The notes under the pieces: model-generated
What the model saw: the letters and a program-made list of their open reading frames with translations, nothing else
What the model was told of the DNA's origin: nothing
Database searches by the model: none
Translations under genes and position numbers: made by a program
Source: a virus
Virus record (IMG/VR): IMGVR_UViG_3300045988_130750
Coordinates: 32,001 to 96,000 of that record
Strand: one strand, 5' to 3'
Length of the DNA: 64,000 bases
Part shown: positions 1,923-28,422 of the stretch, piece by piece
Position numbering within the stretch: the stretch's first letter is position 1
Layout of the letters: every line of letters starts with the position of its first letter

Positions 1923-3782
1923 TTAATAACCAACTACATATTTTTCTTTTATTAGTTCCAATTCATTATTATCATTCAATTCATAATTGAAAGAATGATA
2001 ATTTTCTAATTTTCCATTATTTTTTATGTATAACTCTATGAGTTTTTTACATAATTCAAAATTTTCATTTATGTCTTTTTCCCAAAGATACAAAACTTCA
2101 ATTCCATACTTATTTTTAATATAGGTATGTTTACGTTTATCCTTTATTAAATTTCCCTTAATACCAGAAGTGTTTGATTTATCAGACAAGAGAGGACTAC
2201 AATGCCAAAAATCACCTTGTACCTCGATCATTAAATGATAATCAGATAAATAATGGTCTACTAAATAATATTTACAATCGTATTCACCAATATATTTAAT
2301 ATCCATTTCGTCCAATAAATCATTTATCATTTGTTGTGGCTTTGAAGTTTCAATACTATTCTTCGTACCTTCAAGTGTTACCCATCTGATATAATCCTTA
2401 GTTTTCTTGACTCCCATTCGTCTAGCATATCTTTCTAATTGATCAACAGTTCGACCAGGAAATTTATCAATAAAATCACTTGTTCTATTGTTTGGATATA
2501 ATTGCCGAATCATTTCTCGTTCATTCTCAGAGAATAATTCATCTTTCCTATATATTCCAAATACATTAACAGCTCTATATTGAACAGATGATTCATCTTT
2601 ACCTAATATCTTGGCAATGTCAGAAACAGAATAATCCATATTTCTATAATTATCTTTTAAGAATTGATCTTGTTCTGAAGTCCAACCAGTAACAAATTCT
2701 TCATCTTTCTTAATACCAAGACTATTTATTTTCCCATACAAGCCAGATAAGCTCATATCATCTTTAAAATATTTATTATAGAATTTTTCTGTATTCATAT
2801 ATGGATATTCATTAAATAATAATTCTAATTTATCCTCAGTCCAATATACCTCACCGTTTCTAAAACGATTTGTTACAACTAAACCAAGTTCTGCTTTCTT
2901 TTTATCTATCTGTCCAATTTTTCTATCAGGGAAGAATTTTTCAATCAGAACATCAGCAGAATATGTATTATAATATTTCTTCAATATATCAATTTCTTCA
3001 TCAGTCCATTCTCTCGGTTTTTCATTCCTTAATAAACCAATAGAATTAGCTTTACCAGTAATTTCTGAAATTGTTCGATTGGGAATATATTTATTGTGAA
3101 TTTCTTCTAAAGAAATATCTTGTGAATAGTATTTGTTAAGATATGAGATTTCTTCATCAGTCCAAGAAATGTAATCTTGTTTAAGATTTAATTCACCAGC
3201 TCTGTGTAAAATTGCACTATATGTTTTTGAAAAATAATTTATCAAGTCATCATTCTTTACAGTTCCATAAATTTGCTTTAATAAATTATCTTCCTCAACA
3301 GTCCATACAATTTCTGCTTTATTGAGAGATAATTTTCTCCCTCTTGCTTCAATGGCACGAACAGTTTTATTTGGTAAGAACAAATCATGTAATTCTGTAT
3401 TAGTATAATTTGCAAATTTATCTTTAAGGATTTCGTCTTCTTCAATCGACCATACACAACTGACTTTATGTTTTAAGTGTAAAACGCTTGCTTTACTTGT
3501 TACTTGTGATAATGTCAACTGTGGAAAATAATTCTTTTGAATGTCTTTTACATACATTCCATTTTCATATTTCTCTGTCAGTAGAGCAATATCTTCATCA
3601 GACCATCTAAAAGTTTTTGATTCTAATCCAAGTGTTTTTATTCTTCCTCGTACACTTGGAACTGTTCTTTCGGGAAAATATTTTTCTACAATTTCTGGAT
3701 ATGACATTTTATCATATACCTGTTTTAATATTTCATCTTCTTGAATTGTCCATTTTTTACTTGCCATAATTATTTCGCTCAC
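1923..3782 (-). CDS. Homing-endonuclease-like protein: 8-9 tandem Myb/SANT-like repeats fused to a Vsr/DUF559-type PD-(D/E)xK nuclease domain
   Basis: 619-aa ORF. Repeats W[ST]xE[ED]xxLxxxY about every 50 aa. C-terminus DHYLSDYHLMIEVQGDFWHC...GIEVLYLWEKDI resembles the Vsr/DUF559 core. Confidence 0.8.
   Translation of the reverse strand: MSEIIMASKKWTIQEDEILKQVYDKMSYPEIVEKYFPERTVPSVRGRIKTLGLESKTFRWSDEDIALLTEKYENGMYVKDIQKNYFPQLTLSQVTSKASVLHLKHKVSCVWSIEEDEILKDKFANYTNTELHDLFLPNKTVRAIEARGRKLSLNKAEIVWTVEEDNLLKQIYGTVKNDDLINYFSKTYSAILHRAGELNLKQDYISWTDEEISYLNKYYSQDISLEEIHNKYIPNRTISEITGKANSIGLLRNEKPREWTDEEIDILKKYYNTYSADVLIEKFFPDRKIGQIDKKKAELGLVVTNRFRNGEVYWTEDKLELLFNEYPYMNTEKFYNKYFKDDMSLSGLYGKINSLGIKKDEEFVTGWTSEQDQFLKDNYRNMDYSVSDIAKILGKDESSVQYRAVNVFGIYRKDELFSENEREMIRQLYPNNRTSDFIDKFPGRTVDQLERYARRMGVKKTKDYIRWVTLEGTKNSIETSKPQQMINDLLDEMDIKYIGEYDCKYYLVDHYLSDYHLMIEVQGDFWHCSPLLSDKSNTSGIKGNLIKDKRKHTYIKNKYGIEVLYLWEKDINENFELCKKLIELYIKNNGKLENYHSFNYELNDNNELELIKEKYVVGY
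2372..3752 (-). repeat. Coding tandem repeat array (about 50-aa Myb/SANT-like units) inside the 1923-3782 gene
   Basis: Units start WTIQEDE, WSDEDI, WSIEEDE, WTVEEDN, WTDEEIS, WTDEEID, WTEDKLE, WTSEQDQ, plus a divergent FSENERE. Boundaries are approximate. Confidence 0.7.
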
Positions 3783-4055
3783 TTTCTTGCTCGCTTATTT
3801 ATAAAAAGATGGAAGAGTGGTGCGAGCGATTACCAACTCATATGGCTCATGACTTCCATATGTCTTCCATCCATAATCCAACTACCTGCAATCGAAACAG
3901 TAACGATCCTCTCATAGTTGGCTATATATTTATTCTCTTTTTAAATTCCATCACAATATAAAAAGAAGCCACTTCATACGAAATGACTTCTCATAATTTC
4001 CAATATTAAATTTCCAATGAAAGTGCAATTTACATTGAAAAGAGTAGCACTGTGG

Positions 4056-26248: not shown

Positions 26249-26336
26249 GGTCATAAAGTGCCAGGCACATTCTACGCTTTTTGAGCGGTGCGTATTAAAA
26301 CGCTTTAGGAAGTCGGTTCAAATCCGACTATGACCT
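26249..26336 (+). other. tRNA-like structure 1 (perfect 7-bp acceptor + canonical T arm, non-tRNA interior)
   Basis: GGTCATA (26249-26255) pairs with TATGACC (26329-26335). T arm GTCGG-TTCAAAT-CCGAC. The 56-nt interior has a direct repeat ACGCTTT x2 competing for one GCGT. Confidence 0.5.
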
Positions 26337-26389
26337 TTTACCCAAAAATATATTGCACTCATGCGTTAAATGGGAGAAAGAAGGATATT

Positions 26390-27187
26390 ATGTTAAAATC
26401 TGAAAAATTCTATTCAAAAACTAATGCACTCAAAGACACTACTTTTGACTTTGCAGGTCATGTTCGTACACTTGTACGCCACACTGAATTATCACGGATG
26501 CAGGATAAGAAGTCATTCAAGGATGGCAAAAAAGCCCTTGAGGATTTACACGCTAATATTGACGTTATGACTTGCGAAAAGTCTATTATCAATGAGGCTT
26601 TAGGTGTAGACGCTGGGCAGTTCATCAAAGACCGTGAAGAGATTATTGCACTTAAGGAAGAAATTGCAAGCCTTCCTATTACTATTGACCAGGTAACTGC
26701 ATTGTGTCCTACTGACCGTGTGCATATTACTTTGATGGCTCATGCTATCTATAAGAATGTACAGCTTGATGCGGATATTTTCGATACTGAAAAAGGCGGT
26801 GTTGATATTTCTAAAGCTATTCACGCTTACTACAGTAAAGGCTCTATTAAGGACTTAAAGGATGCTTTGCGTCCAATATTCAATAAGTTAATCGGTTCTG
26901 AAGGTGACCATTTCTACGGCATTAAACCCAAAAAGTCCGACTTTACCGAAAAAGACCTTCGCAACTTCCTTGCTACTTTTGGCGGTTCTGCTAAACGTGA
27001 GCAGGTCAAGTCTAAAAAGGATGGAGTAGAAACAATCACATTCAAGGATTTTAACTATACAGACAAATCAGGCAATAAAAAAGTACAGATTACAGCCTTT
27101 ACAACTCTTTGTGCAGTAGTCCTTGATAATGCATCAAAACACGAAGTTATTAAACCAGAAGAGAAGAAGAAAGAAGAAGCAAAATAG
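26390..27187 (+). CDS. Hypothetical protein, Lys-rich tail
   Basis: ATG at 26390 after GGGAGAAAGAAGG; the track start at 26330 would lie inside the tRNA-like element. Visibly higher G+C than neighbouring genes. Confidence 0.7.
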   Translation: MLKSEKFYSKTNALKDTTFDFAGHVRTLVRHTELSRMQDKKSFKDGKKALEDLHANIDVMTCEKSIINEALGVDAGQFIKDREEIIALKEEIASLPITIDQVTALCPTDRVHITLMAHAIYKNVQLDADIFDTEKGGVDISKAIHAYYSKGSIKDLKDALRPIFNKLIGSEGDHFYGIKPKKSDFTEKDLRNFLATFGGSAKREQVKSKKDGVETITFKDFNYTDKSGNKKVQITAFTTLCAVVLDNASKHEVIKPEEKKKEEAK

Positions 27188-27235
27188 GATAACGGCTCAC
27201 GCTGGGTTAGCAGGGTTCGATTCCCTGCTTATCCT
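27187..27235 (+). other. tRNA-like structure 2 (acceptor + D-like + T arm, no anticodon arm)
   Basis: GGATAA (27187-27192) pairs with TTATCC (27229-27234). T arm CAGGG-TTCGATT-CCCTG. The D-loop-like GCTCACGCTGGGTTAGC has no room for an anticodon stem. It starts on the last base of the upstream TAG stop. Confidence 0.5.
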
Positions 27236-27295: not shown

Positions 27296-27769
27296 ATGAT
27301 TAAGCATGAACCAAAATTTTATGTGCGACTTTGCAAGGGGAAATCTGTAAATTTCCCTGATAATTTTACAATCTATCCTGGTTCGATTTATGGACGTTTT
27401 CAAGACTCAAAAGGCAAACGTATTTTCTGGGTGTGTGATTCTTACACACTATCAGATGATAAACTTCCAGTGCATATTTTTAATGGATTATACTGGAAAT
27501 TATGCCTAGTTTCTGTGGATCATCCATGCTATCAGTGGGTAAAGTCTGCGATTGAATCAATGGGTAAAGTGCCTAAAATTCAAAAGGAAAATGTAACTTT
27601 TGATGATTGTAAAAATATGATGAAGTCATATTCTTTGCATAAAAAAGGAATTGGTTCACGGATTAACACGCACCAAATCAACAACCCGTTGCAATGGAAT
27701 GAGGTCACTGAAACTGCGCATTGGTATGGTAAAGGAAACGCAAGCGTAGTTGCGTCAAATATTAGATAG
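27296..27769 (+). CDS. Hypothetical protein
   Basis: 157-aa ORF with AAGGAGGAATCACCATG start context. Confidence 0.75.
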   Translation: MIKHEPKFYVRLCKGKSVNFPDNFTIYPGSIYGRFQDSKGKRIFWVCDSYTLSDDKLPVHIFNGLYWKLCLVSVDHPCYQWVKSAIESMGKVPKIQKENVTFDDCKNMMKSYSLHKKGIGSRINTHQINNPLQWNEVTETAHWYGKGNASVVASNIR

Positions 27770-27784
27770 TTGGAGGGAAATACT

Positions 27785-28024
27785 ATGCTTAACACACTTG
27801 ATATGTACGGGATTTGTCACGAAATTTACAGGGATTTTAGGGGAAAATCTGTCTATGAAAAGACAGATGAAAATATACTTAATGTTATTTTTATGCTTTA
27901 TAATACAACAGAGATAGACTGCGAAGAAATTCGAGATTTATGGATTGAGTACCTTACAAAAGGGAGTTTGTCTATTCCTACAATGATACAACGTGCAAAA
28001 ATGCGCAGTTATAAGGCAAGCTAA
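27785..28024 (+). CDS. Hypothetical small protein
   Basis: ATG at 27785 after GGAGGG; the track start at 27770 is a TTG. Confidence 0.7.
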   Translation: MLNTLDMYGICHEIYRDFRGKSVYEKTDENILNVIFMLYNTTEIDCEEIRDLWIEYLTKGSLSIPTMIQRAKMRSYKAS

Positions 28025-28033
28025 ATACTTGCC

Positions 28034-28083
28034 TTCCGTCTTACGGTGAAAGTCCGTAACCGATGAGCAGAAGCGAAACGGAA
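28034..28083 (+). ncRNA. Hammerhead ribozyme type-III-like motif (one core deviation, U4 to C)
   Basis: TTCCGT-C | TTACGG-TGAAAGT-CCGTAA | CCGATGA | GC-AGAA-GC | GAA | ACGGAA. GUC cleavage triplet, A15.1-U16.1 pair, G10.1-C11.1 pair. The core is CUGAUGA/GAAA except at position 4. Confidence 0.45.
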
Positions 28084-28158
28084 ATTGTAAAGGAGGCTGA
28101 TTATATGGTATCATATTAACTAGGCTATATGCCTAATAAACACAAATGGAGGATTACC

Positions 28159-28422
28159 ATGTTAAAAATCAATGAATGGTCTGTAAACCGTAGAATAGAA
28201 TCTTTACGTCAGATGGATAAAATGCTATCTGAAATGAACGTAGGATCTCGCTATACTATATGGCAGGAATACGGTGGAGGACTAAAGGCAACCGCAGACG
28301 AAACACGCGCAAACTGGAAACGCATTGCAGAAGATGATGAGCTATATCAAAATGCATTATTCTGTTATATGGTTTGCACACTTGAAAAGCAAACTCTCAA
28401 AGGTTGGGAAAACGTAAAATAG
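28159..28422 (+). CDS. Hypothetical small protein
   Basis: ATG at 28159 after AATGGAGG; the track start is 28129. Confidence 0.65.
   Translation: MLKINEWSVNRRIESLRQMDKMLSEMNVGSRYTIWQEYGGGLKATADETRANWKRIAEDDELYQNALFCYMVCTLEKQTLKGWENVK

Follow-up and report, generated by a model that had tools for sequence, protein, structure and literature searches.

Genomic Context of the Element

The window is the whole stretch of DNA that was analysed (64,000 nt). It corresponds to bases 32001–96000 of a complete 148,651-bp phage genome in IMG/VR with direct terminal repeats. A hammerhead motif lies between two small genes of the window, 9 nt after the upstream stop codon (Table 1), and all neighbouring genes share its strand. 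Neither the 79-aa nor the 87-aa flanking protein had a match in Pfam or PHROG, and two HTH regulators are encoded 3′ of the small flanking genes. The downstream gene most likely starts at the position given in Table 1, with its own GGAGG. BLAST against GenBank phages returned no match for the neighbourhood, for the window hammerhead or for one canonical copy.

Table 1. Features at the hammerhead locus (window coordinates).
Feature	Position	Strand	Remarks
Upstream gene	27785–28024	+	79 aa; stop codon TAA 28022–28024 in the hairpin loop
Hairpin GGCAAG-CTAAATA-CTTGCC	28015–28033	+	directly adjoins stem III
Stem III, 5′ strand UUCCGU	28034–28039	+	last base U16.1; read from sequence
C17 of the GUC triplet	28040	+	predicted cleavage 3′ of this base; read from sequence
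Stem-loop I UUACGG/UGAAAGU/CCGUAA	28041–28059	+	strands 28041–28046 and 28054–28059, loop 28047–28053
Core strand C3-C4-G5-A6-U7-G8-A9 (CCGAUGA)	28060–28066	+	C28061 replaces U4
Stem-loop II GC-AGAA-GC	28067–28074	+	GC 28067–28068, loop 28069–28072, GC 28073–28074; G10.1–C11.1 is G28067–C28074
Core G12-A13-A14 (GAA)	28075–28077	+	read from sequence
Stem III, 3′ strand ACGGAA	28078–28083	+	first base A15.1; A15.1–U16.1 is 28078/28039
Promoter-like site TTGTAA-18-TATCAT with TG	28085–28114	+	context, outside the ribozyme
SD AAGGAGG	28091–28097	+	in the spacer of the promoter-like site
4-codon mini-ORF ATG GTA TCA TAT TAA	28105–28119	+	3′ of the SD AAGGAGG
Downstream gene	28159–28422	+	87 aa; start most likely; own GGAGG 28146–28150

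The block at 28085–28135 is conserved in relatives and can be read in two ways, as a promoter-like site or as an SD with a mini-ORF. The length of the mini-ORF is constant over four sequence versions, namely MVSY-stop in the window and MVTL-stop, MAMP-stop and MVKL-stop in relatives. On the 3′ side of the mini-ORF is a hairpin that covaries; in the window it reads TAGGC-TATAT-GCCTA. Another hairpin, AGCAGGGTTCGATTCCCTGCT, which resembles a tRNA T-arm, is located at 27209–27229 directly 3′ of the gene 26330–27187; Rfam calls no tRNA there.

Structure of the Hammerhead Motif

The motif has type III topology (III5′-H17-I-core-II-GAA-III3′), with helices I and II closed by hairpin loops, helix III open, and stems of 6, 2 and 6 bp. 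The conserved core bases C3, G5, A6, G8, A9, G12, A13 and A14 are all matched, and U4 of the CUGA uridine turn is the unmatched one. The A15.1–U16.1 pair, the G10.1–C11.1 pair and a non-G base at position 17 are also present, all of them invariant or allowed variants in the family. Reading of the sequence at 27700–28400 showed that the helices, the GUC site and the core coordinates in the initial annotation were exact, and the single core deviation that it had described, C for U4, was borne out at C28061.

A type III descriptor was built that allows at most one core mismatch and requires stems of at least 4/2/4 bp, G10.1–C11.1, A15.1–U16.1 and a non-G base at position 17. On both strands of the window, it matched the 28034–28083 element only. 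In 300 dinucleotide-preserving shuffles, the descriptor gave 0.017 matches per 64 kb, and no match had both stem I and stem III at 6 bp. A rate of 0.017 per window is by itself insufficient against chance over the approximately 250,000 windows scanned; chance is excluded because relatives show conservation and covariation.

The folding energy was unremarkable compared with shuffles (z −0.4 to −0.8, not significant). In nearest-neighbour folding together with the upstream hairpin, the hammerhead lies 0.9 kcal/mol above the MFE, with a stem III pairing probability of about 0.3–0.37, and the upstream hairpin can be extended by two pairs into stem III. Tertiary contacts would therefore be needed. 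A type II reading, with the upstream hairpin as stem III, was rejected, as no GAAA precedes the hairpin.

Relatives and Subfamily Membership

Relatives were recruited by an exact 31-mer search and by searches with the two flanking proteins. A nearly identical element is present in about 19 related phage contigs, one of which (L002) differs on both flanks. The core-only pattern CYGATGAGC-N4-GCGAAAC matched more than 115 IMG/VR stretches. Stems I and III were in register in 84 of 119 matches, compared with less than 1% expected for random flanks. Most in-register matches have the canonical core CUGAUGA, and some of them, for example L061, have the stem I and both loops of the window copy. Because canonical siblings share stem I and the loops, the window element is regarded as a hammerhead by descent. 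As judged from the compared sequences, it is a genuine type III hammerhead and belongs by descent to a large subfamily found in phages and prophages.

The subfamily has a common layout. Stem III of 4–8 bp is followed by GUC, rarely GUU, then by a 6-bp stem I with the loop U-R-N-R-A-G-U and by the core CYGAUGA. The 3′ part consists of stem II GC-ANNA-GC, in which loop II positions 1 and 4 are A, and then GAAAC. Position 17 is mostly C; U occurs in a few members (L004, L024, L154 and L070) and G never. The initial annotation had remarked that stem II is only 2 bp. Its length was correctly given; stem II is 2 bp throughout the subfamily, although the search pattern itself fixed the GC...GC stem, and a 2-bp stem II is common among natural hammerheads (Perreault et al. 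2011, PMC3088659). The sequence CCGAUGAGC was not found as text in the supplements of the same paper (PMC3088659).

Nine bacterial genome contigs carry the subfamily, mostly from Clostridia (Butyrivibrio, Roseburia zhanii BX1005, Lachnospiraceae, Caproicibacter and Eubacteriales), and the hosts are thus taken to be gut and rumen Firmicutes (Clostridia). Some loci with canonical members (L047 9181–9261; L052 6734–6781 and 126–660) also bear skipping-rope RNA, gut-2 RNA and a cluster of five tRNA genes. The core-only pattern also matched a separate group of hammerheads with a closed stem III (GAAAC-hairpin-GUC), apparently type I, from non-gut metagenomes (L046, L050, L062, L065, L112 and L114).

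Covariation of the Helices and Loops

Alignment A1 comprises 57 distinct sequences; for inclusion, a minimum of 5 of 6 pairs was required in stem I and of 3 pairs in stem III. In this alignment 95% of the cells are paired, a percentage that the inclusion rule inflates, and 9 of 14 pairs changed on both sides, a count that the rule does not inflate. The covariation score of A1 was 0.50. Shuffled alignments gave 0.11 (0 of 500 reached 0.50), and slid partners gave at most 0.14. All cells of stem I are paired and five of its six pairs are compensated, and four of the six pairs of stem III changed on both sides. The initial annotation had proposed helix conservation at homologous loci as a check, and stems I and III are preserved there with compensatory changes. 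Its identification of a hammerhead is thus supported by the canonical siblings and by covariation of helices I and III over the 57 distinct sequences.

The contact between loop I and loop II is what makes natural (extended) hammerheads fast. In the subfamily, nucleotide 2 of loop I and nucleotide 3 of loop II occur as A:G (37), G:A (21) and G:U (8), without exception in 66 unique sequences, a signal that relatedness inflates. Both loop-pair states occur on the stem I background UGCAGG. The window copy, with G in loop I and A in loop II, conforms to the rule. This covariation points to a tertiary contact between the loops, of which it would be the expected signature.

Detection by Covariance Models

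Rfam 15 cmscan of the whole window at gathering thresholds reported eight tRNAs only and no hammerhead. A search of 221 nt around the site at E ≤ 10 also gave no hammerhead (RF00008, RF00163, RF02276 and others), only noise matches to isrQ, rimP, RAGATH-35 and SNORA8. At gathering thresholds, no hammerhead was called in twelve loci with canonical CUGAUGA siblings either. The best Rfam match of the canonical member in L052 was 17.2 bits to Hammerhead_II (gathering 37), with a wrong alignment. The Rfam models do not cover this short-stem-II subfamily.

A covariance-model score below noise had been named in the initial annotation as an argument against a hammerhead. Such a result was formally obtained, but it is uninformative, and the test is invalid because the Rfam models also miss canonical members. 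Our own covariance model from A1 scored the window copy at 75.7 bits and found no genuine second copy in the phage. The only other match of this model, of 15.8 bits (G000:C1:100008–100054), was rejected because its stem III is broken and its core reads CAGAAGA.

Upstream Hairpin and Intercistronic Layout

In 83 of the 98 distinct contexts of the family, a hairpin lies upstream of stem III at a distance of 0–3 nt. The sequences of these hairpins are unrelated, and their mean z is −2.7. The window hairpin covaries in relatives (GGCAGA/TCTGCC and GGTAGA/TCTGC) and has a pairing probability of about 1.0. The end of the upstream ORF is usually at most 45 nt from stem III in the family, and an SD and a start codon usually follow 10–45 nt 3′ of the ribozyme. 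GGAG or GAGG is located in the 3′ strand of stem III, or a few nucleotides after it, in 23 of the 98 contexts. Coding of "KAD-stop" by the hairpin was considered as a universal feature and rejected, as it is true in some contexts only.

The order of stop codon, hairpin, ribozyme, SD and start codon in the family fits the "mRNA punctuation" that the initial annotation had suggested. Its description of the position was right in one part, as the element directly follows a stop codon. The "next SD" (28091–28097) serves only the 4-codon mini-ORF and lies within the spacer of the promoter-like site. The recurrent layout of hairpin, ribozyme and SD would turn "mRNA punctuation" into a concrete hypothesis of 3′-end capping and 5′-end protection.

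No intrinsic terminator was found at the site: the hairpin is followed by UUCCGUC without a U-tract, and the terminator scan was blank there. Relatives without the hammerhead have a true terminator at the same place, made of the same GGCAGA/TCTGCC stem and a U-run, with the same promoter-like sequence 3′ of it. In L005–L017 and L023 (about 2370–2500), which are without the 79-aa gene and the hammerhead, a 157-aa gene is joined directly to the 87-aa gene via that terminator. From these relatives, the gene, the hairpin and the ribozyme behave as an insertable cassette.

Two further contigs have unusual arrangements. The element of L090 (8429–8482, minus strand) has a 5′ half of the window type (C4), including the hairpin, and a 3′ flank of the L061 type. 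Its stem III is 3 bp and its loop I has AUG for AAG, and by its sequence it looks like the product of recombination inside the ribozyme. In L139, three twister-P5 ribozymes (1995–2052, 2993–3049 and 3743–3803, minus strand) are located within 2 kb of a C4 hammerhead (2435–2488, minus strand). On this small viral contig, one gene block is punctuated by ribozymes of several classes.

C4 Variant of the Core

U4 is usually treated as an invariant base of the hammerhead core. In IMG/VR stretches, position 4 is U in 75 and C in 52, and A and G do not occur; these C4 counts come from family-specific pattern scans in which stem II, G12–A14, part of loop I and most core positions were fixed. Transitions at positions 3, 5, 6, 8 and 9 were found in only five IMG/VR stretches, all of them G8A, and are at least 10 times rarer than C4. 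C4 is present in 22 of 67 unique IMG/VR elements, with at least 8 different stem I sequences. Six of these stem I sequences also occur with U4; independent origins of C4 were counted by such stem backgrounds, and recombination could inflate the count. An alignment of C4 members only was 97% paired with 7 compensated pairs.

Public metagenome contigs gave a similar set of data. The fold is kept in 105 of 108 C4 matches. These matches represent 57 unique C4 elements, spread over 17 stem I backgrounds, and within the window's own lineage they include the path C-G to U.G to U-A. Position 17 of the metagenome elements is C or U. No metagenome contig ended at the predicted cleavage site. At loci recruited via the flanking proteins and not by the motif, copies scored at least 69.9 bits or were absent, with no intermediate.

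These comparative data indicate that position 4 is a pyrimidine position in the subfamily and that the C4 lineages appear to be under selection for the whole motif. The initial annotation had left a choice between an active variant and a decayed copy, and the comparative data lean towards a maintained variant. The change of U4 to C is probably a tolerated and recurrent natural variant that slows cleavage without abolishing it. Laboratory results are less favourable. When a type III hammerhead was exhaustively mutagenised, activity was low for every single mutant in the CUGA turn (PMC9901934), and U4C "considerably decreases activity in vitro" (PMC3088659). A natural viroid hammerhead with U4C is functional in vivo, according to the citation of this work in a later paper (Ambros and Flores 1998, cited in PMC3088659). 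We consider it fairly likely that the window C4 copy is catalytically active. Its activity is rated as likely and not as demonstrated, because the laboratory data on U4 mutants point in the opposite direction to the comparative data.

Five members (L216–L220) have the core CUGAUAA (G8A), in which the C3–G8 pair is broken, and L217 is also without the GUC site. They may be either dead copies or an A+.C variant. A C4 copy was also found in a cultured isolate, Roseburia zhanii BX1005 (L170 7155–7183; NZ_JACOPH010000009.1); its hairpin is of the GGCAGA type, and its stem I has a single C.A mismatch.

Proposed Function and Alternative Explanations

Hammerheads have as yet no defined role in bacteria or phages, and for bacterial hammerheads the processing of polycistronic mRNA has been suggested, not proven (PMC6765202). 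In our opinion, the best explanation of the locus, and a reasonably probable one, is a genuine type III hammerhead of a large subfamily in phages and prophages of gut and rumen Clostridia, which would cleave itself between cistrons after C28040 and tolerate C4. The window element would most likely be an intercistronic processing signal.

We infer the cleavage, the chemistry of the ends and the effects on stability as follows. The polycistronic transcript would fold into a three-helix junction, stabilised by the contact between loop I and loop II, and the RNA would cut itself after C28040. The upstream message would be left with the hairpin 28015–28033, 7 nt (UUCCGUC) and a 2′,3′-cyclic phosphate. 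Its 3′ end would be terminator-like and resistant to exonucleases, and its formation would not require RNA polymerase to stop. The downstream RNA would carry a 5′-OH at U28041, which stem I would bury. In this way, the neighbouring cistrons could be uncoupled in stability and expression, and the simplest reading is that the ribozyme would replace termination by processing. Since a promoter-like site is located 3′ of the element in this clade, the downstream gene may have its own transcript, and cleavage may mainly serve the upstream message.

The most serious alternative is an inactivated hammerhead, in which U4C kills catalysis and the fold persists as a structural RNA, for example as a 5′ or 3′ stabiliser, a recognition site for RNase or protein, or a folding module. 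The low activity of U4 mutants in the laboratory would agree with it, as would the recombinant L090 with its broken stem III and altered loop I, and the five G8A members with a broken C3–G8 pair show that non-canonical cores persist. A core that had become irrelevant should drift, yet position 4 is always a pyrimidine and the other transitions remain at least 10 times rarer. There are also no half-decayed copies at the loci recruited by synteny, and position 17 is never G. We consider an inactivated element rather unlikely on this comparison. That an intergenic hairpin or terminator region resembles the hammerhead consensus by chance has a negligible probability. In favour of chance, the motif is small, Rfam is silent and the fold energy is no better than that of shuffles. 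The descriptor matched only 0.017 times per window, with 0 of 300 shuffles as good, no U-tract terminator was called at the site, and more than 100 homologous copies covary and include siblings with a canonical core. In terms of sequence evidence, the canonical siblings and the covariation of helices and loops effectively refute chance.

The locus might also be a module junction at the DNA level: the hairpin and the hammerhead would mainly be a hotspot of recombination at which small gene cassettes are shuffled, and the RNA activity would be incidental. Junctions of promoters and stem-loops shuffle cassettes in T4-like phages. At the present locus, the same element lies behind different upstream genes, the L002 copy is located between entirely different flanks, L090 is a chimera joined inside the element, and in some relatives a terminator and promoter replace the gene, the hairpin and the hammerhead. 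A recombination site needs neither compensatory pairs nor loop–loop covariation, and we consider this explanation improbable. It is also compatible with the ribozyme reading and would be no alternative to a ribozyme as such.

Returning to the self-cleaving hammerhead, a more tentative proposal concerns the meaning of C4. It is possible, and no stronger word is meant, that C4 hammerheads are a naturally selected and kinetically tuned subclass rather than damaged copies. Only a protonated C would mimic the uridine N3-H contact, and cleavage would be slower or dependent on pH or Mg2+, setting the amount of read-through RNA that is cut. Together with the hairpin, such an element would act as a "ribozyme terminator" that generates terminator-like 3′ ends and past which the polymerase continues. 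If true, a tuned C4 subclass with a hairpin would give bacterial and phage hammerheads a defined and testable job.

Comparison with Known Systems

Hammerheads are the best-studied small ribozymes, and the kind of element described here is already known, so that the surprise is moderate. The recurrence of C4, the loop–loop covariation and the hairpin layout offer a good experimental handle. The type III hammerheads of bacteria and prophages (Perreault et al. 2011, PMC3088659; RF00008, clan CL00010) share with the window copy the three-helix junction, GUC, the A15.1–U16.1 and G10.1–C11.1 pairs, the G5–A9 and G12–A14 core, the 2-bp stem II and an intergenic site in phages. The window copy differs from them by C at position 4 and by scores below those reported by Rfam, the latter also true of its canonical siblings. 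The fixed loops U-R-N-R-A-G-U and A-N-N-A and the abutting upstream hairpin are the subfamily's own.

The viroid U4C hammerhead (Ambros and Flores 1998, cited in PMC3088659) has the same substitution in the U-turn and, as far as the citing paper describes it, is much less active in vitro and sufficient in vivo. In that description it is one variant of an RNA replicon, whereas here a subfamily of DNA phages has C4 in about one third of its unique sequences, on many stem backgrounds. These natural sequences are evidence that position 4 accepts C, and C alone, in repeated cases and in an otherwise intact motif, which contrasts with laboratory mutagenesis.

The layout resembles that of intrinsic terminators in that a GC-containing hairpin follows the stop codon, and the upstream RNA after the predicted cleavage would consist of the hairpin plus 7 nt at its end. 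The window hairpin differs by having no U-tract; the 3′ end would arise by predicted RNA cleavage, and the polymerase would read on. Twister ribozymes and RAGATH RNAs of phage-like regions (Weinberg et al.; RF02684, RF03100) are found in a similar genomic neighbourhood, with unrelated folds and no overlap with the window hammerhead.

The phage subfamily described here lies outside current Rfam reports, and the C4 copy of Roseburia zhanii BX1005 (L170) is a possible experimental system outside metagenomes. The RAGATH-27 motif class was defined via its association with gene neighbourhoods of hammerhead and twister ribozymes. A RAGATH-27 RNA is present in the same phage outside the window (G000:C1:103298–103382; L223 7398–7482), with a score of 93.4 bits against a gathering threshold of 76.1.
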